Positions 6,528 to 22,209 are shown, counted from the stretch's first letter. The stretch is 64,000 nt of DNA from Gammaproteobacteria bacterium (GCA_029287575.1 JARFQW010000188.1:19365-83364), one strand, 5' to 3'. Notes: generated from the letters alone by a model not told the origin. Made by a program: numbers and translations.

Positions 6528-6602
6528 GCTCCGTTCGTCTAGGGGTTAGGACACCGGCCTCTCACGCCGGTAACAGGGGTTCGAATCCCCTACGGAGCGC
6601 CA
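6528..6602 (+). tRNA. tRNA-Glu (anticodon CUC)
   Basis: GCTCCGT/ACGGAGC acceptor stem, TCGTCTAGGGGTTAGGAC D-arm, CCGGC-CTCTCAC-GCCGG anticodon arm, AGGGGTTCGAATCCCCT T-arm and encoded CCA. It aligns position-for-position with E. coli tRNA-Glu. Confidence 0.9.
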
Positions 6603-6871
6603 CTTTCCGCCGGTCACTGCCAGTTCACTTCCAGAAATGCGCGCCGGGCCGCGCTTGCGGAGGGGCCTGGTCACAACGGACCTCCGCAAGCCGGCGACCT
6701 TCTCCAGTCACCGGGAACCTACTGCACCTCGCTGGGCGCCACGACAGCAGCGTCGGGCCCTCTGTCCGGGAACCGCTATTGCGCTCGCACTCGGGCGGAA
6801 ATCGCCAGGGCTTCCGCAGAGCGGGCTTGGCTAGAGCGACCGGCGTTGCGAAACGATTCAACTGCTCCAAG

Positions 6872-6953
6872 GCCGCCATCTCCCGCCTGGCGCGCAAGCT
6901 GCGTTCCCACAAAGCGGCCACGAAAAAGTTGAATACCTAACACCGGCACCGTT
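6872..6953. repeat. direct repeat copy 1 (pairs with 8215-8310)
   Basis: GCCGCCATCTCCCGCCTGG...AAAAAGTTGAATACCTAACACCGGCACCGTT. It shares identical 12-nt and 16-nt cores and a similar upstream ~45 nt with copy 2. A GGCAC-cgtt-GTGCC hairpin follows. Confidence 0.6.
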
Positions 6954-7113
6954 GTGCCGAAAGTCTGTTGCAGCGAGCGGGCGCCCGGGCAAGACCAGCG
7001 GCCTACGAGGTAACATGAGCACGTACGTGCACTGACGGAATCGGCGGCTGAATTGTCCCGGTCCGACCTGTAGATGACCCGGCGAATCCAACAACAACAG
7101 AGCTAAACCCTTT

Positions 7114-8142
7114 ATGTTTGGCATCCACCCGCTCCGTCTGCTGCTGCGCATGGTGCTCTGCATCGGCGCAGCCCTGTTTGTGTTGTGGGCGGTTCTGGCC
7201 CTCTGGATTGATGGACCCGTCTCGCGCACGGCTGCCGGGCTCATCATCGGCATTCTGCTGGGGGCCCTGGCCGGGGCTGTCATCTGGATCCGCCCGTTCC
7301 GGCGATCTCTGGCAGCCGTTGTCGGCTTGTGTATCGCCGTGGCGGCCTGGTGGCTGACCCTTTCGCCCGCCAACGACCGCAACTGGCAGCCGAATGTGGC
7401 GCACCTGCCCACCGCGACCCTGGATGGTTCCCTACTGACCATCAACAATGTCCGCAGTTTCCGTTACGGGGATGACGAAGCAGACGCTCAAGAGCGCTGG
7501 ATCACCGCCACCTATGACCTCGATGAGCTGGTGGGTTTCGACATCTTCTTCTCTTTCTGGGGACCTCAGGCTTACGGCCACACCATCGCCAGCTGGGAGT
7601 TTGCTGATGGTCGCCACCTGGCGGTCTCGATCGAAACCCGCAAGGAGGTGGGCGAGTCCTATTCAGCATTGCGCGGCTTCTTCCGGCAGTTCGAACTCTA
7701 CTATGTGGTGGCAGAAGAGACAGATGTGGTGGCTCTGCGGACCAATCACCGCGGTGAGCGGGTAGAGCTGCATCGGATTTTCACCCCTGATGAGGGTGAT
7801 CGGGCCATGCTTCTCGACTATGTTCAAGACATCAACGAGCTGGCCGCGAATCCCCGCTGGTACAACGCGCTGACCCAGAACTGCACCACAACCATCTGGA
7901 AACACGCCAAAGCAGTTGGCTCAAGTTTCCCGCTGGACTGGCGGCTGCTGGCCAACGGCTATGTCCTTGAACTGGCCTATCAGCTGGGCACCGTCAACAG
8001 CACGGTGAGCCTCGATGAGCTGAGACGGCGCAGCGACATTACCAAGCTCGCCATACAGAACGGCGACAGTGGTGATTTTTCCAGGAATATTCGCCAGGAA
8101 CTGCTCGAGCGGCCCACAGCCTTTCCGGCCCCACGCCCCTAG
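7114..8142 (+). CDS. DUF4105 (Lnb N-terminal periplasmic domain) family membrane protein
   Basis: N-terminal TM helices are followed by NDRNWQPN..., SIETRKEVGESYSALRGFFRQFELYYVVAEETDVVALRTNHRGE and WYNALTQNCTT. These strings are characteristic of DUF4105 as I remember the family. Confidence 0.7.
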   Translation: MFGIHPLRLLLRMVLCIGAALFVLWAVLALWIDGPVSRTAAGLIIGILLGALAGAVIWIRPFRRSLAAVVGLCIAVAAWWLTLSPANDRNWQPNVAHLPTATLDGSLLTINNVRSFRYGDDEADAQERWITATYDLDELVGFDIFFSFWGPQAYGHTIASWEFADGRHLAVSIETRKEVGESYSALRGFFRQFELYYVVAEETDVVALRTNHRGERVELHRIFTPDEGDRAMLLDYVQDINELAANPRWYNALTQNCTTTIWKHAKAVGSSFPLDWRLLANGYVLELAYQLGTVNSTVSLDELRRRSDITKLAIQNGDSGDFSRNIRQELLERPTAFPAPRP

Positions 8143-8214
8143 CGCCCACATCATGGCGATGACCTCTGTGCGGCTTCCCATCCTTTACTGATTTCGTCGC
8201 TGTCCCTGTGCCCA

Positions 8215-8310
8215 GCTGCCATCTCCCTGCTGGTGTGCGAGTTTCCGCGCCGCCCCGAAGCCGCTTCCAAAAAGTTGAATGCTTAACGAATGCTTAACAC
8301 CGGCACCGTT
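8215..8310. repeat. direct repeat copy 2 (pairs with 6872-6953)
   Basis: GCTGCCATCTCCCTGCTGG...AAAAAGTTGAATGCTTAAC(GAATGCTTAAC)ACCGGCACCGTT. It contains an internal 11-nt tandem duplication relative to copy 1. Confidence 0.6.
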
Positions 8311-11255: not shown

Positions 11256-11810
11256 TCAGTTCCCGGGCTTGACAACCACCATGTTGGCAACATCCTCGAC
11301 ACCTTTGACCCCGCGCGCGACCTCTCCCGCCCGGACCTTCTCTTCCTTGCTTTCGGTGAACCCGCTAAGGAGCACGACGTTGCGCCGGACCTCCACGCTG
11401 ACTTCCCGCGCGTCGGCCACCTCGTCACCGATGAGCGCGGCCTTGACCTTGGTTTCGATGGTCTGGTCATCGAGGACCTGGCCGGCGGAACGATCTGGCG
11501 CTGAGACGACGAGTCCGTTGGTCACCTGCTTCACGCCTTCCACCGACTCGGCCACCTGCTCGGCAGCGGCCCTTTCCGCATCGCTCTCCACGAAACCCGC
11601 CAGAATGACGTTGCCCTGGTAGGTCTCCAGGTTGATCGACCGGGCCTTGACCGCATCGCTCTCCGCCAGTGCCGCCTTGACCGACGCCTGCACGGTGGAA
11701 TCGTCCAGCGCCTCTCCGGCGGATCGTTCCGCGAACACATACGGTGCAGCGAACATCAGGCTCACAGCCACTGCGAGACCGGCCACAAGGGAAGCAATTC
11801 GATTCGCCAT
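11256..11810 (-). CDS. BON-domain (OsmY-like) periplasmic protein
   Basis: Signal peptide MANRIASLVAGLAVAVSLMFAAPYVFA, then two BON repeats (INLETYQGNVILAGFVESDAERAAAEQVAESVEGVKQVTN; VSVEVRRNVVLLSGFTESKEEKVRAGEVARGVKGVEDV). GGAGAG precedes the ATG. Confidence 0.8.
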   Translation of the reverse strand: MANRIASLVAGLAVAVSLMFAAPYVFAERSAGEALDDSTVQASVKAALAESDAVKARSINLETYQGNVILAGFVESDAERAAAEQVAESVEGVKQVTNGLVVSAPDRSAGQVLDDQTIETKVKAALIGDEVADAREVSVEVRRNVVLLSGFTESKEEKVRAGEVARGVKGVEDVANMVVVKPGN

Positions 11811-11910
11811 GAAGACTCTCCTGCAAAAAATCCTGCGCCCAGCGCGGGCGCCCCGTGTTCCGCCCAGAAGCTTAGCCGGGTGCACGCGGAATGCCATGCG
11901 GGCCGTTCGA

Positions 11911-12429
11911 TCAGGAACCGGAGTTTCGTTCCAGGCCCTCGATGACCTCCGTCGGGATCGTCTCCTCGCAAGACCAGCTCCGGCGCGCCGGGTTGCGCCA
12001 TGAATCATGGTAAGGCACCGCGAGGCCCGCCTGGAGCAGGGCCTGCGCCAGGTCCTCCCCCTCGACCTCTATGCGGCCCACCCACGAACGGGTATCCCGC
12101 CCCCGACGCACATCCCGGGCCTTCAGACGCCTGCCCTTGATAAAGCCCTCCACGAACGCCTTGGCCTCGTAGCCGAGCGGTTTCTCGCACTCCTGGTCGG
12201 TGTAGATCGCCGGCGTATGCACATTGGACAGGCGAAACCGTGTCGCGCCGCGCCCGGCGGGCCCTTCCAGAAATCGAATATCGTATCGATACCCTTCGAT
12301 CACCCGGGTTATCTCCATGCGAAACGGGCCCTCGCGAACCGGCTCCCGATAGCCTTCGGTCGCGAGCACCCCGGTGAACGCGAGCAAGCCCGCACACCAT
12401 CCGCCAAGACCCTTCACTAGCGTCCGCAC
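11911..12429 (-). CDS. thermonuclease (SNase)-like secreted nuclease
   Basis: Start at GTG 12429 with GGAGGAG upstream and signal peptide VRTLVKGLGGWCAGLLAFTGVLA. The SNase-like core is RFRLSNVHTPAIY...YEAKAFVEGFI...GRIEVEGEDLAQALLQAGLAVPY. Confidence 0.6.
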   Translation of the reverse strand: MRTLVKGLGGWCAGLLAFTGVLATEGYREPVREGPFRMEITRVIEGYRYDIRFLEGPAGRGATRFRLSNVHTPAIYTDQECEKPLGYEAKAFVEGFIKGRRLKARDVRRGRDTRSWVGRIEVEGEDLAQALLQAGLAVPYHDSWRNPARRSWSCEETIPTEVIEGLERNSGS

Positions 12430-12663
12430 CGATCCCTCTCCTCCAGTTCCTCTCCACGACCGGACGCCGCGGGGGGCAGCCCGTATCCTACCGGCCATCC
12501 CGCCGACTGGCCTGACTGGAGTCTCTCCGCCCGGAGCGAAGGAACCGTCGGGCTGTTCCAGGGCGGCGCATTCAGCAGCACGCGTTCACCAGGTCGGAGC
12601 TGCCGGTGCGCTAGGATGGGTCTGCTCCTTTCCCGGCGCACTTGCTTTGTTCGGAGAGTCCCC

Positions 12664-13350
12664 ATGGCCGCCTCGTCCCGCATCGCCCTGGTTGCCGGCG
12701 CCACCGGTCTCGTCGGCGGTCACCTGTTGCAGGCCTTGCTGCAGCGTTCCGAATTCGGCAAAGTCATCGCCGTCACCCGGCGAACGACGGCGGTGACCCA
12801 TCCGCACCTTACCGAGATTCTTGCGGACTTCGAACAACTCGAAGCCAGCCTCACCGAGGGCCTGGCCGGACGGCAGGTCGACTGCGCCTATTGCTGCCTT
12901 GGGACGACCCGGGCCAAGGCCGGCTCGCCAGCGGCGTTCAGGCGCGTCGATCTCGATCATGTTGCCGCCTTCGCCGGGAGCGCGAAGCGGGCGGGAACCG
13001 CGGTCTTCGCCCTGAACTCATCCGTCGGCGCTGACCCGGAGTCGGGCAATCTGTACCTCCGAACAAAGGGCGAAGCGGAAGCCGCCTGCCGGGCCGTGGG
13101 TTTCGAATCGCTGCTGATTTTTCGTCCGGGTCTGCTGCGCGGGCAGCGCGAGGAATTCCGGCTGGCCGAACGCCTCGGCGTACTCGCCGCGCCGCTCACC
13201 GACCGGCTCATGCTCGGGCCCCTGGCCCGCTATCGGAGCACGTCGGCGCGGGATCTTGCCGCGGTGATGTACGCGGCCAGTATCAACGCACAGCCGGGAG
13301 AAACCGTATTCGAGGGTCGCGATCTTGCGCCTGGCGGGGGCAGCGACTAA
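12664..13350 (+). CDS. NAD(P)H-binding (atypical SDR / HTATIP2-like) oxidoreductase
   Basis: Rossmann motif IALVAGATGLVGGHLLQALL with a short ~228 aa body. Start at the internal ATG preceded by GGAGAG. Confidence 0.7.
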   Translation: MAASSRIALVAGATGLVGGHLLQALLQRSEFGKVIAVTRRTTAVTHPHLTEILADFEQLEASLTEGLAGRQVDCAYCCLGTTRAKAGSPAAFRRVDLDHVAAFAGSAKRAGTAVFALNSSVGADPESGNLYLRTKGEAEAACRAVGFESLLIFRPGLLRGQREEFRLAERLGVLAAPLTDRLMLGPLARYRSTSARDLAAVMYAASINAQPGETVFEGRDLAPGGGSD

Positions 13351-13488
13351 GCGCTCCCGAATGGCGCCGGAGACACCCGTGAACTAGTTTTTCTCTATGT
13401 GCACCGGCTCGGGACCGGCGGCAATCGCCGAACGGGGACAGTCGTTGACCCGGTGCCGATCCCTGACGTACCCGGGAGGAGCTGACCC

Positions 13489-15138
13489 ATGTCCAGGCCA
13501 ACTGTTCGGGTAGAGAACGGCGCCGTCTCGCCCGCGCCGCGTGGCGCAACTTCGCACCGCGGCCGCGGTGACACCGGGTACACCCGGCTGTTGTTCCGAG
13601 TCGACGTCCCGGGACCCGTGCGCCGCAAGCCCGGAGCGCCGGTCGAGGCGCTCGAGGATCTGCTGGGCAAGGCATTCAGGGACCTTCGGTGCCGCTGGCC
13701 CGGCGTGGCCTTCGGCTTTGCCTTTGCGGTATCCGCCGAGAAGGTCAACGCGGCCAGTCCCCGTTCGACGTTCGACGACACCCGCAACCGGTATTTCTAT
13801 GCCTGGGTGCCGTTCGACACCTCGCTTGCCGGGTTCGTGCCGGACCTGGCGGTCCTTGCAGGCGTCGATTCGGCGAGCGTATCCGCGGACCCGCCGGTTA
13901 CCGTCTGGGAACCGCTGGCGGACCTGGATCCGGACGACGCCGCCGCGGAGTTCGACGCCTTCAGCCAGGCCTGGGCGGGGCCGGCGGGCATCAACGCCGT
14001 GAAGGCCTGGGCCTACGCGGGCGCCCGGGGCGAGGACATGACGATTGCCGACCTGGAACAGGGCTGGACCCTGGATCACATCGATCTCTACGACACCGGC
14101 AATCCCGACCGGATCCGCCGGGTATTCGGTCTGAACCAGGCCTACATGGGTCACGGTACGGCGGTCCTCGGCATCCTCGCGGCCAGGGAGGACGGCAAGG
14201 GCTGCACGGGTGCGGTGCCCGCGGCCCGGATCCGCTGTTATTCCCTCATCGAGGACTCCGGCTGGGACCTGCCCCTGCAGTGGGCCATCGATGCGGCGGT
14301 CTGGGGAGTCGATCCGCTGATCGCGCTCCGCGGCGAAGCCCCGGGCACGGGTGACGGACCTACCGCGGCCGGCGTCCATCCGCTGGAAAAAGGCGACATC
14401 CTGCTGATCGAAGACCAGGGAAGTCTGCCGGCCCTGGACGTAACCGGCGTTCCCGCCGAAGTGCAGCTGCCGGTCTTCATTGCGATTCAGGACGCGACCA
14501 GCCGCGAGATTACCGTGATCGAGCCGGCGGGTAACGGGAGCGTGGATCTCGATGACCTGGCCGGTCAGCCCGGAGTGGCGGGACTCGGAAGCGGAGCCGA
14601 GGACAGCGGCGCGATAGTCGTTGGCGCAAGCACCGCCGGCGGGTTCCGCGAGCGCCTGGACTCGTCGTGCTTTGGCGGCCGCGTCGACTGCCATGCCTGG
14701 GGTGAGGGCGTGTTTACGACCGGCGACGGCTGGGAGGGCAACGACCGGTTCTGCTACACACTGTTCGGCGGCACATCGGCGGCCGCCGCACAGGTGGCCG
14801 CCGCCGCGGCTGCCGTGCAGGGGGCCCACCGGCTGTTCAATGGCGCGACGCTGAATCCCGCGGACCTGCGTCAGGCCTTGAAGGACGCCGGTCAGCGTTC
14901 CCTCAATCCGGCCAACGACCGCATCGGCGTCATGCCCGACACCTACGGCACGATCCGGGCCTTCGCCGGCGAACCGCCGGGCACTACGCCCGCCTATCCG
15001 GATCCCGCGGACAACGATTTGTCGGACGTTGTCCTGTGCGGCGTCGCATACGACGAATTCGACGCACCGGCACCGGCCCTGGCCCCGGTATTCTTCGTGC
15101 TCGGACTGCTCGCCGGCATCGTCCTCATGCTCATATAG
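13489..15138 (+). CDS. S8 (subtilisin-like) serine peptidase with C-terminal transmembrane helix and no signal peptide
   Basis: Catalytic triad contexts are IADLEQGW (Asp), MGHGTAVLGI (His), PAGNGS (oxyanion Asn) and FGGTSAAAAQVAAAAA (Ser). GGGAGGAG lies 8 nt before the ATG. The last 18 aa, VFFVLGLLAGIVLMLI, are hydrophobic. The 592-aa antisense ORF is a shadow. Confidence 0.8.
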   Translation: MSRPTVRVENGAVSPAPRGATSHRGRGDTGYTRLLFRVDVPGPVRRKPGAPVEALEDLLGKAFRDLRCRWPGVAFGFAFAVSAEKVNAASPRSTFDDTRNRYFYAWVPFDTSLAGFVPDLAVLAGVDSASVSADPPVTVWEPLADLDPDDAAAEFDAFSQAWAGPAGINAVKAWAYAGARGEDMTIADLEQGWTLDHIDLYDTGNPDRIRRVFGLNQAYMGHGTAVLGILAAREDGKGCTGAVPAARIRCYSLIEDSGWDLPLQWAIDAAVWGVDPLIALRGEAPGTGDGPTAAGVHPLEKGDILLIEDQGSLPALDVTGVPAEVQLPVFIAIQDATSREITVIEPAGNGSVDLDDLAGQPGVAGLGSGAEDSGAIVVGASTAGGFRERLDSSCFGGRVDCHAWGEGVFTTGDGWEGNDRFCYTLFGGTSAAAAQVAAAAAAVQGAHRLFNGATLNPADLRQALKDAGQRSLNPANDRIGVMPDTYGTIRAFAGEPPGTTPAYPDPADNDLSDVVLCGVAYDEFDAPAPALAPVFFVLGLLAGIVLMLI

Positions 15139-15149
15139 CAGGGCCTGTT

Positions 15150-15169
15150 TCGACCGGGGCACCGGTCGA
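15150..15169. terminator. hairpin between convergent S8 peptidase gene and the 52-codon ORF
   Basis: TCGACCGG-ggca-CCGGTCGA is a perfect 8-bp stem. A third CCGGTCGA copy at 15181-15188 allows an alternative pairing. Confidence 0.5.
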
Positions 15170-15190
15170 GACCGACACCTCCGGTCGACG

Positions 15191-15349
15191 CTATCCGGTA
15201 CTCCGGATCACGAGCATCAGCACAATGCCCGCAAGCAGGCCCAGCACGAACCAGATGGCCTGCATGCGCGTCTGCACGGACTCCCAGCCCGACGGCGGTG
15301 GTTTTCTGGGCCGGTCTCCCGGCGGCGGTTTTCTTGGTCTGTCTCCCAT
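15191..15349 (-). CDS. 52-aa proline/arginine-rich tail-anchored membrane protein (below the 60-aa cutoff, so absent from the ORF track)
   Basis: My hand translation is MGDRPRKPPPGDRPRKPPPSGWESVQTRMQAIWFVLGLLAGIVLMLVIRSTG*. GGGAGGTGG lies 6-7 nt before the ATG. The ORF sits 36 nt downstream of the TPR regulator gene on the same strand. Its TM helix matches the S8 anchor at 13/13 residues, and all 7 nucleotide differences are synonymous. Confidence 0.6.
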   Translation of the reverse strand: MGDRPRKPPPGDRPRKPPPSGWESVQTRMQAIWFVLGLLAGIVLMLVIRSTG

Positions 15350-15385
15350 CGGCTCCACCTCCCTTGGGTGTTGCGGTTGCCGGCG

Positions 15386-17707
15386 CTAGCTGGCCGGCGC
15401 TCCGGTCAGGGCCCGGAAGCGGTCCGAAGACCACAGGCCCTCCCAGCGCGGATCTGCCACCAGGTACTCCGGGTTATAGCCAAGCGATACGGCCTGTTCC
15501 AGCGCATCGATAGCGGGATCGGTGTCGTTACTGCGGGCCAGAACGAGGGCGCGCGCGGCATGGCCATCCGGAGCGCGCGGCGCCAGTTCGATCGCCCGGT
15601 CGGCGCTCCTCAGGGCCTCGGGCAAGCGGCCTGCCTGGGAAAGGTACCGGGCCAGATCTGCGTGCACCATGGCGTCGGCCGGTGTCTGGACCGCCGCCTG
15701 TCCGGCCAGGTCGATGGCCCGAAGCAGACTGTCCCGGGCCAGGGCTTCCTCCCCGGGGACAAACGCAGCCGCCTCGGCCAGTTCCCCCCATGTCCAGTAG
15801 GCATCCGGGGCCAGCCGGGCCGCCTCTCTGAAGGCATCGACGGCATCGGCCATGCGCTCGCCGAAATAGATCTCGCCGAGATTGGCCCACGCGAAAACCG
15901 TGGGCTCGATCTCCAGGGAGCGCCGAAACGCCGCTTCGGCCTCCGCGTCGTTGCCGGTATCCAGCAGGCCCGCGCCAAGCGAGGTCCAGGCATCGGCGCT
16001 GTCCCCCTTGAGTTCGACCACCTTGCGGTAGTACGGCAGGGCCTCCCGGCCCCGCCCCACGTTCACGAGAAAATGCCCCATGGCCGTGTAGCTGCCCCAG
16101 TAGGACGGGTCGATCGCGATAGCCGCGCTGTAGGCCTCGTAAGCCTCATCGGGCCGGTTGCGGGCGTACAGCACGTCGCCGAGACCGTACCGGGCCTCGA
16201 TCAGATTCGGAAACGACGCCAGCGCCAGCCGGTACTCGTCCTCGGCCGCCGCCAGCCGTCCGGTCAGCCGATACAGCGCGCCCCGTGCCGCATGGGTCTC
16301 CGCAAAATCCGGATCCAGCGCCGTGGCCTCGGCACAGGCATTCTCCGCCCGGGTCAGCAGCGCGCCCGTTCGGTTGCGCCGGTAGCGGTGTACGGCCAGG
16401 TCGCATTCGGCCGCGCGCGCCGGCCCGTAGCCGGGGTCCAGCTCGACGCTCTGGGTCAGGAGACGTTCGGCCGTATCCAGGGCATCAGGAGTCTTCGGTT
16501 CCCGAAGAAGCTGGCGTGCCTGAAGATAGAGGTCATAGGCACCCAGCCCCGTGACCGGGGCCGGGTCCGTGGCGGGCCCTGTCAGGACCACGCCGAGGGC
16601 GGCCAGTACCTCCCGGGCGACGTCCTGGCTCACCTGGGAGACGGCGGGTCCGGTCGCAGTAAAGGTCTCCGCCCAGAGCGACAAACCCTCGCGCCCGTCG
16701 GCCAGGCTGACCGCGAGGGTGATTTCGTCGCCCTCGCGCGTGACGGTGCCTTCCAGCACCGCCCCAACACCGAGTCGGCCGGCGATGGCGGGGACGTCAC
16801 CGCCCTGGGCCGCGTGGTAGCGGGCCGAGCGCCATGAAGCCACGCGAAGCGCGTCGTGGTGCATCAGCCGATTGGTCAGTTCTTCCGCCAGTCCCTCCGC
16901 CAGTCCGGCCCCCCCGTCGGGATTGCGCGGGCCGGCAAAAGGCAATACCGCCACGGTCGGTTCGGACCCAACAACGGCGACCGGCACCCGTGCGGCGGCT
17001 TCGGAGGCTTCGCGGGGTACGGCCGAACGTTCGTGGAACAACCAGCCCGCGGCTCCCGAAATCACGAGGCCGGCCAGACCCAGGGACACGGCGACGCCGC
17101 GATTGCGGCTCTCCGACGGTGCGGGGGAGGATGTCGCCCAGCCCAGAACCAGCGCCAGCGGGAACCCCAGGGCCAGCACGGCCACGACGAACGTCAGCGT
17201 CCAGTCCGGCAGCCCGAGAGCCGGAAACACGGTCTCGGCGACCTGCACGAGCAGCCAGGCCAGAGCGCCATAGACGGCAGCCACCCGAAGGATATGCCCC
17301 CGAGACGCGCGAGCCGGCCCGGGAGCGGCTTGCGCCGGCGGCGAGGCCGGATCGGGCCCGGATTGTGCATCGCCGGCGGCCGCGGGCCGTGGAGTCACCA
17401 GGAGCCGGTAGCCCCGTTTCGGGAGTGTTTGCACGAAGCGCGGCTCGTGGGCATCGTCGGCGAGCGCCTGGCGCAGGTCCGATACACAGCGCGTAAGCGG
17501 CTGCATGCTCGGATAGCCCGGCCGCCAGACGTCGTGCAGCAGCGTTTCCCTGGACACCACCTCGCCGGGCTCCCGGGCGAGACGCAGCAGCACCTCCATG
17601 GCCTTGGGTTGCACATGGCGGGTTCCCCGGGGCCCTTCGATTTCGCCCAGCAGCGGGCGCACCTGGAAGTCTCCCAGGGCAAAACCGTTGAGCAGTTGCT
17701 CCTGCAT
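15386..17707 (-). CDS. ToxR/CadC-like membrane transcriptional regulator (winged helix + TM segments + TolB-N-like domain + TPR repeats)
   Basis: The N-terminus FQVRPLLGEIEGPRGTRHVQPKAMEVLLRLAREPGEVVSRETLLHDVW...VSDLRQAL..FVQTLPKRGYRL is an OmpR/CadC-type wHTH. Hydrophobic segments follow at ~aa 150-230, then many TPR-like repeats. ATG 17707 is preferred over GTG 17770, which has no SD. Confidence 0.75.
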   Translation of the reverse strand: MQEQLLNGFALGDFQVRPLLGEIEGPRGTRHVQPKAMEVLLRLAREPGEVVSRETLLHDVWRPGYPSMQPLTRCVSDLRQALADDAHEPRFVQTLPKRGYRLLVTPRPAAAGDAQSGPDPASPPAQAAPGPARASRGHILRVAAVYGALAWLLVQVAETVFPALGLPDWTLTFVVAVLALGFPLALVLGWATSSPAPSESRNRGVAVSLGLAGLVISGAAGWLFHERSAVPREASEAAARVPVAVVGSEPTVAVLPFAGPRNPDGGAGLAEGLAEELTNRLMHHDALRVASWRSARYHAAQGGDVPAIAGRLGVGAVLEGTVTREGDEITLAVSLADGREGLSLWAETFTATGPAVSQVSQDVAREVLAALGVVLTGPATDPAPVTGLGAYDLYLQARQLLREPKTPDALDTAERLLTQSVELDPGYGPARAAECDLAVHRYRRNRTGALLTRAENACAEATALDPDFAETHAARGALYRLTGRLAAAEDEYRLALASFPNLIEARYGLGDVLYARNRPDEAYEAYSAAIAIDPSYWGSYTAMGHFLVNVGRGREALPYYRKVVELKGDSADAWTSLGAGLLDTGNDAEAEAAFRRSLEIEPTVFAWANLGEIYFGERMADAVDAFREAARLAPDAYWTWGELAEAAAFVPGEEALARDSLLRAIDLAGQAAVQTPADAMVHADLARYLSQAGRLPEALRSADRAIELAPRAPDGHAARALVLARSNDTDPAIDALEQAVSLGYNPEYLVADPRWEGLWSSDRFRALTGAPAS

Positions 17708-17753
17708 ACGGGTCCCCGTTGCAATGGGCAAAGTATAGCGGCCGCTGGCCGCA

Positions 17754-18938
17754 TCAAGCCGAACCCGCACGCCGCGGCGCCGCGGCGACCACCGGGCAAT
17801 GCTCGAGGGGCACCGGGTAGTCCGCCAGCTCCACCGTCGGCTGGAACTGTCCGGCCAGCTCGTCGACGAGACGTCGCCATGCCTCGGGGCTATCGGGAAT
17901 CGGACCCTCCGCTTCCGCTGCCCAGACCTGGTCGCCTGTACGCGTATCGCTCAGACGGACAATGACGCGGACACGACCGCCCACGACGTTGACCAGCCCG
18001 TTGAGGGCCAGGTCCGCCGGCGCTCCGGCGGAGCGCACCCGCATGCCGGGGACCGCTGCGAGCCGCAGTCTGACCTCTTCGGTCAGGCTGTGGGACAAGG
18101 CCCTCGCCGTCACGATCCGGCCGGCGGCGTCGAAGGGCTCGACGACAACGGCCGCCGGCGCCGGTCCCGATCCCGCGGCTTCGGGGCCGAGCCAGGCGGC
18201 GCCACCGGAGGAAACGAGATTGGCGGTCAGCACCACCGTGCAGAGCACGAGCAGCAGCGCGCGCGAAGCCAGCGTTCCGACAAAGCGGAACGGGCTGACG
18301 ATCGGCCTCTCCCGGGGTGCCCTGCGCACGCGGCCGGCATCGATATCGAATGCCCAGGCCAGCGCCACACTGACCGGGAACCCCAGGGCCAGCGTGACGA
18401 CCACAAAGGTGATGGCCCAGTCCGGAACGAGCACGATCGGGAAGACGGTAGCGGATACCTCCGTGGCGACCCACGCGAAAATCACGTAGGCCAGGGCCAC
18501 CCGGACCACCCGGCGGCGGCGAAGCTCCGCCCAGAGACCGGGCGCGGACCCGCGAGAGGCAGGGCCAGGCCCGACCGTATTGCCGTCCGGGCCCGGCGGC
18601 TCGTCAGCGGGCAAGGCGGACACCGGCGCGAGCAGCCGGTAGCCCCGCTTCGGCAGGGTCTGGATGATGGCCGGCGCGTGGGCCTGGTCCCGAAGCGCGT
18701 GACGGATTTCGCTGATGACATGGGTCAGGGCATGGTCACCCACCGGCTCACGGGACCAGATCTCGGCCAGCAGGGTTTCCCGGCTGACGAGCAGCCCGGG
18801 ACGCTCCGCCAGGAACACCAGGACACGCATCGCCCGGGGATGCAGGCGCACCGGGCCATGCGGCCCGAAAATCTCACCGGTCCGAGGCTCGACCCGGAAG
18901 GGGCCGATCCGGAAGACACTGGGCAGTGGCTGGCGCAT
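17754..18938 (-). CDS. ToxR/CadC-like membrane transcriptional regulator (paralog of the downstream gene, no TPR)
   Basis: FRIGPFRVEPRTGEIFGPHGPVRLHPRAMRVLVFLAERPGLLVSRETLLAEIW...ISEIRHAL...IIQTLPKRGYRL, followed by the same VALAYVIFAWVATEV..PDWAITFVVVTLALGFPV membrane block as its neighbour. GAGGAA precedes ATG 18938. Confidence 0.7.
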   Translation of the reverse strand: MRQPLPSVFRIGPFRVEPRTGEIFGPHGPVRLHPRAMRVLVFLAERPGLLVSRETLLAEIWSREPVGDHALTHVISEIRHALRDQAHAPAIIQTLPKRGYRLLAPVSALPADEPPGPDGNTVGPGPASRGSAPGLWAELRRRRVVRVALAYVIFAWVATEVSATVFPIVLVPDWAITFVVVTLALGFPVSVALAWAFDIDAGRVRRAPRERPIVSPFRFVGTLASRALLLVLCTVVLTANLVSSGGAAWLGPEAAGSGPAPAAVVVEPFDAAGRIVTARALSHSLTEEVRLRLAAVPGMRVRSAGAPADLALNGLVNVVGGRVRVIVRLSDTRTGDQVWAAEAEGPIPDSPEAWRRLVDELAGQFQPTVELADYPVPLEHCPVVAAAPRRAGSA

Positions 18939-19044
18939 GGGAATTCCTCGTTTCGGACCTGGTGAGCCGACCCTAGGCGCCCACGGGAGAGGTATCAACG
19001 CAACTCCATGACAAATAACAAAAAAATTAGACAAACGTAGAGAT

Positions 19045-19062
19045 ACGAAGGTTTTGCGAAGG
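19045..19062. promoter_or_regulatory. phased direct repeat (A/G)CGAAGG x2 in an A/T-rich divergent promoter region
   Basis: ACGAAGG (19045-19051) and GCGAAGG (19056-19062) are 11 bp apart, and ACGAAT follows at 19071. They sit in the most A/T-rich stretch of the window, between divergent operons. Any operator role is only an inference. Confidence 0.25.
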
Positions 19063-19147
19063 TCTTTGAGACGAATCCGTATGACATAACGAGCGCGTTG
19101 CTCGGCCCGGATCGGCCCGATGGTATGATGTAGGAAACTCTTCGTAG

Positions 19148-20263
19148 GTGAACGCGTTGGTGCTTGCCCGCCCCCTCCTCCTCGGCATTCTGGCCGTCCT
19201 GGCTACCCCGGCCTTGGCCGAGCGGCAGGAACTCGCTCGCAGTGTGGCGATGAAGCAGGCCGCCGGTCCGGACGTCCAGCGGGCCCTCTCCACGCTGGAC
19301 GGGCTGGAAAGGCTGGCGGACCCGAAAGCTCTCGCGGAGGTTGCCGGGAAGATGGCTGCAGACCCGGCCATGACGCCGGCTGGCCGGGATCGGCTCCTGA
19401 CCGATGCCGCACGCCGGCTGGGATCCATGCCCGACAGCGCCGCTTCGCGGCAATTCCTGGAAGGTCTGGCTATCCGCAAGAGCGAAGTCTGGATACCGGT
19501 CGAGGAAACTGGTGGCCTGGTTCATATCCCCCTCTACGATGCCGGCGCCCAGGCGCGCCATACCCTCAAGACCCTCGACATTCGCGCGGTCGCCCGGGAT
19601 CTCACGCCGCGGGCGGCGCGCGGCGAGGCGGGCCTGGCCGTCGAGGCCCGTGCAGCGGCGCCCGGATCGGTGTTCAGGCAAGGGCTGAAGCAGGCGTTGC
19701 TCGACGCCAGGGCAACGGCGGCGGGGAGCGCCGGACCCGCGTCGATTTCCCATAGTCTGGCGGCGCTGCTCCCGCAGGACCCTTCCCTGGGCACGCTGGC
19801 GCTGACGGCCCGGGACCCGGCTGACCGGGATGTCCTGGCTGGCGTGCTCGATCTGGGGGACACCGCAAGCGGGCTTGCGGCCCTCCCGCTGACGCGATCG
19901 CTGCCGTCCCCGGAGGCCCGCCCGCTTCTGGAGATTGCGGCCCGCCGCGGCGACATCGCATCCGCTGCGGTCCTGGAAGCGGGACGTCGCTGGCCGGAGG
20001 ATCCCGACACGGGCCGGTGGCTGGAAACCCTGCTCGGCGACCCCGGCGTCGGTGCCAGTGCCGCATCCGCGCTGGCCCGCTACGGTGACGAGGCACTCGT
20101 CACCCGCCTGGCCGACCGGCTGCGTGGCGAAGCCGACGAACGGACCGCCCGCCACCTGGTGCTCTATCTTCGGCTCGCCGACTCGGCGCAAGCCCGCGAA
20201 GCCATAAACAGGCTCAGGGAGGACCCGGCGGTGTCCGCCGCGGTCCGTGGAGAACTCCGTTGA
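19148..20263 (+). CDS. secreted Ala/Leu/Arg-rich alpha-helical repeat protein (hypothetical)
   Basis: GTG start with signal peptide MNALVLARPLLLGILAVLATPALA. The body has HEAT-like helical-repeat composition, and I recognise no catalytic motif. Its stop overlaps the next gene's start as TTGA. Confidence 0.55.
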   Translation: MNALVLARPLLLGILAVLATPALAERQELARSVAMKQAAGPDVQRALSTLDGLERLADPKALAEVAGKMAADPAMTPAGRDRLLTDAARRLGSMPDSAASRQFLEGLAIRKSEVWIPVEETGGLVHIPLYDAGAQARHTLKTLDIRAVARDLTPRAARGEAGLAVEARAAAPGSVFRQGLKQALLDARATAAGSAGPASISHSLAALLPQDPSLGTLALTARDPADRDVLAGVLDLGDTASGLAALPLTRSLPSPEARPLLEIAARRGDIASAAVLEAGRRWPEDPDTGRWLETLLGDPGVGASAASALARYGDEALVTRLADRLRGEADERTARHLVLYLRLADSAQAREAINRLREDPAVSAAVRGELR

Positions 20264-22209
20264 TTCGGTCGTTCGCGCGCACGCTGATACTGCTGCTGGT
20301 CGCCGATGCCGTCAGCGCCGCATGCCAGTTCGACAGCCGGGGGACAATCACCAATCCGTCAGATCCCAGCTGCCGGGACGCCATGTTCACCTACACCGAG
20401 AATGACAACACCGGCTCCCGGGTCGCCATCGGGTATCCCGTCCCCGTGCCGGTGGACTCTCTCACTCCGGTGACCGGTTTCCGCACCTTCGAAAGCCTGC
20501 ATGCGCGACACCAGGCGCTGGACGCGGAATTCGACTACGTCACCGGCACCATCGTCGGTCAAACCGTGTCCGGCCGGGATATCTGGGCCTATGTCATCGG
20601 CGACCCCGACCGCACGACCGTCAACGGCCGTCCGGAACCCGCGGTCATGCTCAACGGCGGCATCCACGCGCGCGAGTGGCAGAGCCCCGAAGCCGTGACC
20701 GCCGTATTCGAGCGGCTCGTGGAAATGGCGGGCGACGGCGGGGTGGGCAGCTGGCTCATCGACAATATGACCGTCGTGATTCTGCCGGTGCAGAATGTCG
20801 ATGGCCTCATGTCCACCCAGCGTTATCCCGACCGTGTAAGCGCCTCCGTCGAGCAGCCCCGGGAAGGCCGGATGCGGCGCAAGAACCTGGCCAGCCCCTC
20901 GGCGCCCGGCAGTGCCATTGATCAGGACCTGGACACGACCGAAGACAATTTCTACGGCGTGGACCTGAATCGGAACAATGCCCGCGGGTTCGGCATGAAC
21001 GGCGGCTCGGTTCCGAACCCGGTCAGTCTCGTAAACCGGGGTTCGGCCGCGGCCTCGGAGCCCGAGACACAGGCCCTGCTGGCTGCGGCGGCGCTGGGCC
21101 CGGAGAGCCGACTGCGTTTTTACGTGGACGCCCATTCCTTTACCCAGATTTTCCTTGCGCCGATGACCGGCAACCAGCGCCGCGACGCCATTACCACGAA
21201 CCTCGCCACGCGTATGCGAGCGGCCCTGAACAACAAGTACTTCTGGGGCCCCGCCGAGCCAGGAAGGGGCGGGATCGGTACGACGGCCGACTATTTCGCC
21301 TACACCTTCCAGATTCCGAGCTGGACCCTCGAGCTCGAGCCTCGCAACGGCGGTGTGGCCTACGGCGGCACCGGCGTAAGCCACAGCGGATTCATCCTGC
21401 CTGCCAGCGAAGTCCCCCGCATGCAGGCCGAAATCGTCACCATGACGCTGCCGGGTTACTACCTGATGGGCGGAGCCGCCGCCGTGGCCGCCGCGGAGAT
21501 CCGGAACCTGGACACCGATGAGGTCGTCTACCGCGGCGACCAGGCGCCCGGGCCCGCGGGGGCGGACCTCCGGGTCGGCATCAATCGGGCCCTGGTCCCC
21601 GGCGACAGGTACCGGCTGTGGCTGGCGTTCGACAAGCCCATGCGCTGGCTGGGCAATGCCGGGAGCGTGGTGAGCTACCCGGGACAGCCCGGGGCCCTCG
21701 CGCCGGCGCTGACGCTCGAGGTGCCCGGCCTCGGAGCACTGGATCTCGATGCGGGCCCCGATGCCTGGCTCACCGCCGCCGGAGGCGCGCCCGACGGGTA
21801 CCATCGATACACCGCGGATGCGGTCGGCGTGGATTTCACGGTTCCCGGGAACTGGGCACCCGCGAGCCCGGCGGCGGCGGTGCTTTCGGTGTCGACCGCG
21901 GATATGACCGGACAGAAGCTGGATGCCGATCCCGCGACCTCCGTCGACTGGGCCGGCGGCCACTGGAGCGGTCTCGAATCGGAACCCGGTGTCGCCGGAG
22001 ACGACGGCGGACCGGACTGCAGCTTCAAGCCCTTTGTCGCCACCGATGCCGATGCGGCCGCGCCGGCGGAGGTTGCCTGCGCCGCTTTCTCCACCGAGCC
22101 GCTCCCGCCCGCCGGCGGCGGGGGCAGCGGCGGAGGCGGAGGCGGCGGCCTCGGCGGTCTCGGACTGCTCGGCCTGTCGATCTATGCCTGGCGCCGCCGC
22201 CGCGGCTGA
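20260..22209 (+). CDS. M14 zinc carboxypeptidase with GlyGly-CTERM-like sorting tail
   Basis: Signal peptide IRSFARTLILLLVADAVSA. M14 zinc motif GRDIWAYVIGDP...AVMLNGGIHAREWQSPE. The C-terminus is GGGGSGGGGGGGLGGLGLLGLSIYAWRRRRG. The 760-aa antisense ORF is a shadow. Confidence 0.8.
   Translation: MIRSFARTLILLLVADAVSAACQFDSRGTITNPSDPSCRDAMFTYTENDNTGSRVAIGYPVPVPVDSLTPVTGFRTFESLHARHQALDAEFDYVTGTIVGQTVSGRDIWAYVIGDPDRTTVNGRPEPAVMLNGGIHAREWQSPEAVTAVFERLVEMAGDGGVGSWLIDNMTVVILPVQNVDGLMSTQRYPDRVSASVEQPREGRMRRKNLASPSAPGSAIDQDLDTTEDNFYGVDLNRNNARGFGMNGGSVPNPVSLVNRGSAAASEPETQALLAAAALGPESRLRFYVDAHSFTQIFLAPMTGNQRRDAITTNLATRMRAALNNKYFWGPAEPGRGGIGTTADYFAYTFQIPSWTLELEPRNGGVAYGGTGVSHSGFILPASEVPRMQAEIVTMTLPGYYLMGGAAAVAAAEIRNLDTDEVVYRGDQAPGPAGADLRVGINRALVPGDRYRLWLAFDKPMRWLGNAGSVVSYPGQPGALAPALTLEVPGLGALDLDAGPDAWLTAAGGAPDGYHRYTADAVGVDFTVPGNWAPASPAAAVLSVSTADMTGQKLDADPATSVDWAGGHWSGLESEPGVAGDDGGPDCSFKPFVATDADAAAPAEVACAAFSTEPLPPAGGGGSGGGGGGGLGGLGLLGLSIYAWRRRRG

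Follow-up and report, generated by a model that had tools for sequence, protein, structure and literature searches.

A micro-protein that resembles the membrane anchor of a neighbouring subtilase in a candidate transmembrane signalling block of uncultured Gammaproteobacteria

A 52-residue membrane protein encoded within a 64-kb stretch of gammaproteobacterial DNA (GCA_029287575.1, JARFQW010000188.1:19365-83364; 64,000 nucleotides, ~66 % G+C, hereafter the window) carries a near-duplicate of the C-terminal membrane helix of a subtilisin-family (S8) protease encoded convergently beside it, and the likeness is held by selection on the proteins themselves. Both genes belong to a block at positions 13489-22209 that also encodes two membrane-bound transcription regulators, upstream of the micro-protein and on the same strand, and, divergently, a secreted helical-repeat protein and a zinc carboxypeptidase of the M14 family. 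The reading that we favour, to which we give a probability of roughly 0.4, is that the protease is tied to the regulator operon through the helix twin and that the divergent peptidase operon is what the regulators control. An earlier, sequence-only reading of the window had proposed the six genes, their orientations and the translational coupling, and scans of open reading frames (ORFs), Pfam and NCBIfam recover all of these at 13489-22209, with small corrections to start sites. The components of the block are as follows.

13489-15138, + strand: S8 peptidase, 549 residues (PF00082)
15191-15349, - strand: micro-protein, 52 residues (gene-caller call)
15386-17707, - strand: large regulator, 773 residues (Trans_reg_C and TPR by Pfam)
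17754-18938, - strand: small regulator, 394 residues (Trans_reg_C by Pfam)
18939-19147: divergent A/T-rich control region, 209 bp (alignment of four lineages)
19148-20263, + strand: helical-repeat (ARM/HEAT-like) protein, 371 residues (AlphaFold2 model)
20260-22209, + strand: M14 zinc carboxypeptidase, 649 residues (PF00246)

The anchor helix and its copy in the micro-protein

Hydropathy analysis of the S8 protease reveals a single hydrophobic segment, which consists of the last 19 residues (531-549) and gives the protein the tail-anchored look that had been claimed for it. The chain ends in APVFFVLGLLAGIVLMLI directly before the stop codon, and the anchor is encoded by the following stretch.

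15079-15135, + strand: S8 tail-anchor coding stretch LAPVFFVLGLLAGIVLMLI, with the GxxxG motif GLLAG

The micro-protein has the complete sequence MGDRPRKPPPGDRPRKPPPSGWESVQTRMQAIWFVLGLLAGIVLMLVIRSTG, and over a 14-residue helix core (FVLGLLAGIVLMLI in the protease and FVLGLLAGIVLMLV in the micro-protein, the latter coded at 15209-15250) the two proteins are identical at 13 positions, with GxxxG in both. When all ~128,000 six-frame positions of the window are compared with this core, the next-best match reaches 7 of 14; the likeness is thus well above chance, and the proposed mimicry of the S8 anchor is well founded. Outside the helix and the aromatic residues that border it, the two proteins are not alike.

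In the window, 9 of the 42 bases that encode the core are not shared by the two genes; eight codons are affected, seven of them synonymously. The comparison covers seven lineages (the window, L005, L016, L003, L014, L019 and L004; L016 is the same as L005 over the core). Within a genome the two copies lie 6-12 of 42 bases apart, whereas orthologous stretches differ by 1-8 bases among the micro-proteins and by 5-12 among the S8 tails, and the copies share 71-93 % amino-acid identity and 71-86 % DNA identity. The differing codons are mainly synonymous in the window and in most relatives, but not in L003 (1 vs 3 non-synonymous) or L004 (4 vs 4). The match is kept in every relative examined, with the invariant residues F-x-L-G-x-L-x-G-x-V-L-x-L, GxxxG among them. 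Since the differences are mainly synonymous and the match persists in all of these relatives, selection on the helix acts at the protein level, and gene conversion is excluded as the cause because orthologues are closer to one another than are the copies within a genome. We take the copies to be old paralogues that have not been homogenized and whose likeness is held by protein-level selection. Two changes are paired between the two proteins. LGVL stands in the S8 tail of the most divergent lineage and again in its micro-protein, written with different codons (GTG and GTT), and core position 7 is alanine in both proteins in the window lineage and threonine in both in most relatives, although it is mixed in L005 and L016 (threonine in the protease, alanine in the micro-protein). 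The pattern is suggestive, with too few events for statistics.

We note that the helix-coding stretches form inverted repeats ~70 nt apart and that, with the three small hairpins that lie between them, they would give a read-through RNA a long, interrupted stem (window 15085-15260; -83 kcal/mol, z = -5.7). The mismatches of this stem fall at wobble positions, and the constraint is therefore on coding rather than on RNA. Gene conversion and an RNA hairpin were both rejected as the origin of the twin, on the wobble-position differences and on the greater divergence of the copies than of orthologues, although, beyond the protein-level twin, the stem might also influence the convergent genes through antisense or termination effects. 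A short hairpin, read from the sequence and present as a stem in the RNA fold, separates the two genes and is a possible bidirectional terminator, which the terminator scan missed because it has no T-run.

15150-15169: GC-rich hairpin TCGACCGG-GGCA-CCGGTCGA between the convergent S8 and micro-protein genes

The micro-protein is itself a genuine gene. Its start is an ATG behind a GGGAGG Shine-Dalgarno sequence rather than a GTG three codons upstream, so that the product has 52 residues and not 55. The strong Shine-Dalgarno sequence is kept in divergent lineages, gene callers call the ORF, and the ratio of non-synonymous to synonymous differences between lineages (pN/pS) is 0.04-0.43 over the whole ORF; a chance ORF is ruled out on these three grounds. 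The gene lies 36 nt 3' of the large regulator on the same strand, with no hairpin in between. The protein consists of a basic, proline-rich arm, a GDRPRKPPP motif repeated twice in tandem and near-invariant in the clade, followed by the membrane helix and then five residues. It has no Pfam or NCBIfam match. Homologues form five clusters in a word-indexed search of 5.8 billion clustered proteins and have three representatives in an exhaustive HMMER search of 1.84 billion representatives; all are clade members, and neither search found a relative outside the clade.

The protease, the regulators and the divergent operon

Peptidase_S8 (PF00082) spans residues 183-468 of the protease (E-value 4e-12), and the catalytic residues D188, H222, N349 and S430 are invariant among 42 family members. 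The N-terminus has no hydrophobic segment or signal peptide by hydropathy, an upstream stop codon closes the ORF, and the orthologues have the same N-terminal beginning. The AlphaFold2 model (predicted local distance difference test, pLDDT, 79.5; predicted template modelling score, pTM, 0.85) comprises a propeptide-like alpha/beta domain (~30-133), a disordered connector, the subtilisin core (~165-495), a disordered linker of ~35 residues and the terminal helix, and its best Foldseek matches are secreted and intracellular subtilisins (PDB 2wv7, 2xrm and 7y6m among them). Because an N-terminal hydrophobic segment is absent and the lone hydrophobic stretch lies at the C-terminus, the protein is probably a tail-anchored subtilase that faces the cytoplasm. 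Its juxtamembrane linker (coded at 14985-15078) is acidic and contains the invariant motif PADNDLS-V-LCG. The arm of the micro-protein is basic, and parallel pairing of the two helices would bring the opposite charges next to each other.

Beyond the close orthologues there is a wider S8 family (35-42 % identity), whose function and topology appear to be undescribed. Signal peptides are absent from all 120 members, and a C-terminal membrane helix is present in 26, which outside the close orthologues is usually preceded by C-I-K-C-G-P-x-D-P-G-Y-I-G-D. Other members are fused to Amidase_3 or PG_binding_1 domains, and some adjoin integrase or TraG genes. No helix twins were found beside the distant tail-bearing homologues. 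One S8 orthologue (P0006, an NCBI record) has 328 residues and an out-of-frame-looking tail (GAPPWSPPFLPSFLPHPSFFLSFFHI); its shortening is probably a frameshift or an assembly error. The protease is not a mycosin (TIGR03921; 51.4 bits against a cut-off of 278.75, and no signal peptide), NCBIfam sorting-domain models match neither its tail nor the micro-protein, and the sole match of the block proteins to PADLOC anti-phage defence models is a weak one to a generic subtilase (E-value 6e-6, 24 bits).

The two regulators contain Trans_reg_C (PF00486) above cut-off, with E-values of 3.5e-15 in the large and 2e-16 in the small protein. The large regulator consists of an N-terminal winged helix of the OmpR/PhoB type, a variable linker and three hydrophobic segments, followed by an alpha/beta domain and TPR repeats; the small regulator shares the winged helix, the linker and the three hydrophobic segments but has no TPR repeats. 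They are paralogues, 45 % identical over the first 200 residues (winged helix, linker and membrane module), a relationship that is reflected in the DNA repeats D1 and D2 of the window, and their genes are separated by 46 nt with no overlap. As the number of hydrophobic segments is odd, the C-terminal domains (alpha/beta, plus TPR in the large protein) would lie in the periplasm. The linkers vary in length and sequence, and the membrane module is highly conserved in both proteins. At the cytoplasmic membrane border of the small regulator (residues ~134-151, coded at 18480-18530) the variable linker gives way to an invariant GLW-ELRRRRVVRVALAY, whose polybasic run is conceivably a protease site or a lipid-contact site. 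The proteins score 59 and 73 bits with the NCBIfam CadC model (cut-off 400) and 58 bits with HilA/EilA (cut-off 589), in each case through the DNA-binding domain only, and are not equivalent to CadC or HilA. They fall within the large group of transmembrane transcription regulators (PMC10269533).

The region between the regulator and peptidase operons is A/T-rich, as had been claimed for 18939-19147, and contains clade-conserved blocks, which were defined by an alignment of four lineages and are identical among them, although the proteins of these lineages are no more than 53-68 % identical. The region upstream of the S8 gene is, by contrast, poorly conserved.

18991-19004: block GGTATCAACGCAAC, clade-conserved
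19009-19030: A-rich block TGACAAATAACAAAAAAATTAG (clade form TGACAAATAAyAAAAAAATTAG), clade-conserved
19046-19062: block CGAAGGTTTTGCGAAGG (CGAAGGTTTTsCGAA in the clade), with a CGAAGG direct repeat of 11-bp period
19121-19129: extended -10-like sequence TGGTATGAT (TGnTAnnAT), with no conserved -35
to 19148: GTAGGAA..TTCGTAGG, adjoining the start codon, clade-conserved

The A-rich block and the CGAAGGTTTTsCGAA block are present in clade loci that span the region, the window lineage having a one-base variant of the former, and the CGAAGG direct repeat with its 11-bp period occurs in two lineages. No canonical sigma-70 promoter was called, and the region resembles what would be expected of an activator-dependent promoter bound by OmpR-family domains. 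The motif of conserved block D is present as one exact copy, with no second convincing site upstream of the S8 gene or elsewhere in the window.

The helical-repeat protein has a Sec-type signal peptide, a weak HEAT_2 match below the Pfam cut-off and homologues in ten clusters; its true start may be TTG 19157 or GTG 19160. Its AlphaFold2 model (pLDDT 91) is an all-alpha solenoid of the ARM/HEAT type with one beta-hairpin, for which the PDB holds generic ARM/HEAT neighbours, all with E-values above 1e-3, and no specific one. The M14 protein has a signal peptide and a strong match to Peptidase_M14 (PF00246; E-value 7e-36), and its start overlaps the stop of the helical-repeat gene as TTGA. The sequence-only reading of this pair as a secreted helical-repeat protein with a TTGA-coupled carboxypeptidase stands. 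Its further suggestion of a sorting tail is borne out in shape, since the M14 protein ends in a tripartite, GlyGly-CTERM-like tail (coded at ~22114-22206) of a Gly/Ser run, a hydrophobic stretch and RRRR that is kept in L005 and L013 and has a similar counterpart in L011, but not in score, as the tail reaches 17.8 bits with the SVAGG GlyGly-CTERM protein family (cut-off 150) and 16.6 bits with MYXO-CTERM (cut-off 20).

Orthologues of the pair occur in Steroidobacteraceae-like contigs (helical-repeat protein 35 %, M14 protein 53 % identical, the latter measured against L011) with the same 4-nt overlap. The A-rich and CGAAGGTTTTsCGAA patterns are absent from two such contigs, L011 and L012. Directly upstream of the pair these contigs carry a conserved small ORF (L011 3522-3719 and L012 2102-2257; 51-65 residues, containing VNDELYTLTISPEGLKLVPKGKRKGHELTWRDLLNG), in a position that is taken by the regulator operon in the window clade. 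L011 also has a MASE1-GGDEF gene that overlaps the 3' end of the M14 gene (6816-8267) and, 6.5 kb downstream, an unrelated winged-helix/TPR membrane regulator of 795 residues (11361-13748). The latter was considered as an orthologue of the block regulators and rejected as a generic family member (~30 % identity); it illustrates the abundance of regulators of this type in such genomes.

Conservation, mechanism and alternatives

Close orthologues of the S8 protease form six clusters, beyond which identity falls straight to 37 %. Among 185,579 species genomes the protease is present in one, an uncultured gammaproteobacterial metagenome-assembled genome, and of the metagenome scans for further loci one yielded none and another a single close locus. 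The window has matching contigs in ENA metagenomes. The S8 and micro-protein genes are convergent neighbours in 7 of 7 lineages in which the S8 3' end and the downstream flank could be read, a regulator gene lies directly upstream of the micro-protein wherever the contig reaches, and the helical-repeat/M14 operon is divergent where covered. The proposal of a six-gene unit is borne out in part: the gene order is kept in all clade lineages with enough sequence, but the observation does not discriminate, since the flanks are kept too, and the helical-repeat/M14 pair is found independently elsewhere. Because that pair occurs without the other four genes, the block is best read as two units, an older peptidase operon and a clade-specific set of regulators, micro-protein and S8 protease.

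One flank of the block consists of genes for YidB, ProQ, TMEM175, BON, SNase and an NAD-binding epimerase, and the opposite flank of genes for RDD, LptG, LptF and PepA; the genome and metagenome scans yielded no lineage in which the flanks differ. The sole Rfam/ARAGORN match within the window is a tRNA-Glu (anticodon CTC) at 6528-6602. Long antisense ORFs lie opposite the S8 gene (13384-15162, - strand, 592 residues) and the large regulator gene (15029-16837, + strand, 602 residues); both are opposite Pfam-matched genes and uncalled on matching contigs, and they are a common artefact of high G+C.

In the mechanism that we favour, the small regulator, the large regulator and the micro-protein would be co-transcribed, so that the micro-protein is made together with the regulators. 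The catalytic domain of the protease and the basic, proline-rich arm of the micro-protein would both lie on the cytoplasmic side of the inner membrane, held there by near-identical GxxxG helices, which, being the same, most likely pair with one another or compete for one partner helix. The micro-protein could in this way determine the place of protease action, or whether there is any action at all. The simplest assumption for the target of the protease would be the membrane-bound regulators, whose winged helices and linkers are predicted on the same membrane face, and the regulators would bind the conserved intergenic blocks and control the divergent helical-repeat/M14 operon, the likeliest regulated target. 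Helix pairing, topology, co-transcription and binding to the blocks are steps that we infer, and this applies above all to S8 cleavage of the regulators, which is the least supported step and conjectural, although it is geometrically plausible because all of the parts would be on the same membrane face.

Several observations weigh against this mechanism. All relatives come from one narrow uncultured clade with shared housekeeping flanks, and since those flanks are kept along with the block the conserved order could be plain synteny. In the Steroidobacteraceae-like contigs the helical-repeat/M14 pair lies beside glmU with no S8 gene, micro-protein or adjacent regulator pair. The S8 gene is transcribed apart from the regulator operon, and the conserved block D motif is absent upstream of it. 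Distant S8 family members are mostly stand-alone genes, at times in integrase-bearing islands, a setting that hints at roles unrelated to regulators, and in most helix-bearing members of the wider family basic residues follow the tail helix, which makes the topology of the family less certain. The regulator linkers contain no conserved motif resembling a cleavage site, except for the RRRR of the small regulator, and the protease would have to act on the regulators from the cytoplasmic side, unlike the periplasmic and intramembrane proteolysis of ToxR and TcpP.

An alternative that we consider possible, if well below even odds, is that the protease and the micro-protein are a self-contained pair, in which the micro-protein serves as anchor partner, inhibitor or substrate, the adjacency of the regulators is inherited synteny, and the regulators, with no part played by a protease, sense a periplasmic signal by means of the TPR and alpha/beta domains and control the divergent peptidase operon or other genes. 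The conserved flanks, the stand-alone S8 relatives elsewhere with no such regulators nearby and the independence of the helical-repeat/M14 pair are all as this would predict. The position of the micro-protein gene is harder to accommodate, as it is on the regulator strand, 36 nt past the regulator stop codon, with no room for a promoter and no intervening terminator, and it converges on the S8 gene rather than being co-transcribed with it, an arrangement kept in every lineage with enough sequence.

More doubtful is the view that the shared helix is an address read by a third party (the membrane module of a regulator, an insertase, or a sorting or processing enzyme), for which the micro-protein would be a competitor or decoy. 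The restriction of identity to the helix and aromatic border would suit an address, as would the highly conserved membrane module that the two regulators share, and C-terminal helix signals are common as sorting tags, the neighbouring M14 protein having one. The S8 tail is nevertheless unlike known C-terminal sorting domains, because it ends at the helix without a basic cluster and the protein has no signal peptide; neither tail has an NCBIfam match, and no candidate sorting enzyme was found in the block by Pfam or NCBIfam.

A bolder reading, in which the protease is a bacterial, cytoplasm-side counterpart of the site-1 protease that cuts the regulators at the juxtamembrane linker, and the micro-protein, produced along with the regulators, sits on its GxxxG anchor and gates access as a built-in decoy or adaptor, seems to us unlikely. 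Quite improbable is a tethered pro-peptide, with the protease freeing the Pro/Arg-rich arm as a cytoplasmic effector (in the manner, for example, of proline-rich peptides with the ribosome or DnaK as target) in a stress or conflict response and not for control of the regulators. The arm is near-invariant across the clade and presumably resembles proline-rich antimicrobial peptides, and distant S8 relatives in integrase-bearing islands and the weak PADLOC subtilase match point the same way; the gene, however, belongs to a regulator operon with housekeeping genes around it, no PADLOC defence-family match rises above noise, and subtilases disfavour cleavage before proline. Finally, an inverted duplication under gene conversion, or a selected hairpin or antisense element with an incidental small ORF, is barely credible, for although the inverted repeats and the z of -5.7 might invite it, the mismatches are at third codon positions, amino-acid identity is not below DNA identity, within-genome copies are more diverged than orthologues, and the conserved start and Shine-Dalgarno sequence are accompanied by purifying selection outside the repeat as well.

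Comparison with known systems and significance

ToxR/ToxS, TcpP/TcpH and VtrA/VtrC are co-component transmembrane transcription regulators (Kinch et al. 2022, PMC9214523; survey PMC10269533). The VtrA/VtrC-type partner consists of a single membrane helix and, in the periplasm, a lipocalin-like beta-barrel, whose pairing with the periplasmic domain of the regulator is an obligate heterodimer (PMC9214523), and in Vibrio TcpH decides whether TcpP is proteolysed (PMC11323476). The block resembles these systems in its membrane-tethered winged helices of the OmpR/PhoB type, in the periplasmic sensor, in a small membrane-protein gene directly downstream and in the presence of two such regulators, which can act together; the proposed logic, with a partner that would decide on proteolysis, is like that of TcpP/TcpH. 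Unlike those partners, the micro-protein has no periplasmic lipocalin-like domain, with 5 residues past the helix, and for this reason the block is not a co-component cassette of the ToxRS/VtrAC type; the regulators also have three hydrophobic segments and not one. The Vibrio proteases, periplasmic Tsp or DegS together with intramembrane RseP, are encoded elsewhere in the genome, whereas the candidate here is a neighbouring, dedicated S8 protease that would face the cytoplasm.

The arrangement also recalls that of the eukaryotic site-1 protease, an S8 enzyme with a C-terminal membrane anchor that acts on SREBP, ATF6 and CREB3 (cited in PMC10269533). Both are subtilisin-family proteases with an intact triad and a C-terminal membrane helix, found alongside membrane-bound transcription factors. 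The site-1 protease, however, has a signal peptide and makes a luminal cut that is followed by the site-2 protease, whereas the S8 protein here has no signal peptide, and no site-2 protease was found in the block by Pfam and gene scans; the sequence relationship between the two is limited to the S8 fold. Leaderless subtilases are represented by the Bacillus intracellular subtilisins and by PopC of Myxococcus, which is paired with a restraining partner, PopD. The block S8 protein is like them in the absence of a signal peptide, in its propeptide-like N-terminus and in a probable need for restraint inside the cell, and unlike these soluble enzymes it is tail-anchored, with a membrane micro-protein as its putative partner.

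Small membrane proteins that modulate larger ones through helix contacts include MgrB and SafA (both acting on PhoQ), MgtR (MgtC and FtsH) and AcrZ (AcrB). The micro-protein is like them a single-helix protein of ~30-50 residues encoded near regulatory genes, with a presumed helix-helix contact in the inner membrane. We know of no protein of the MgrB, SafA, MgtR or AcrZ type that copies the helix of its partner, whereas here there is a near-duplicate that is maintained by selection, and in a limited literature search we met no account of a protease whose anchor helix is copied by a micro-protein encoded next to it. The M14 tail can be compared with those of exoproteins sorted by GlyGly-CTERM and rhombosortase, for example VesB (PMC3237569, PMC6219818), being tripartite and at the C-terminus of an exported hydrolase, with scores under the curated cut-offs; no rhombosortase came to light in the window, where no search aimed at one was made.

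Membrane-bound one-component regulators are widespread, and the switching of the few for which it is known involves periplasmic or intramembrane proteases encoded elsewhere. A dedicated leaderless subtilase, probably on the same membrane face as the regulator DNA-binding domains, together with a micro-protein of the regulator operon that carries a selected copy of its anchor, suggests a coupling of proteolysis to membrane signalling that has not been described. Its distribution is limited to this rare uncultured clade, and we infer its function. If the helices do pair, they would embody a simple and portable principle, in which a membrane enzyme is controlled by the expression of a copy of its own anchor, and would provide a clean natural case of small-protein regulation recognizable from sequence alone. 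The twin also supplies a rule for genome-wide searches, namely a small ORF whose helix duplicates the anchor of a neighbouring protein. Even without the link to the regulators, a helix twin under protein-level selection offers a tangible and inexpensive system in which to test how membrane helices recognize one another.

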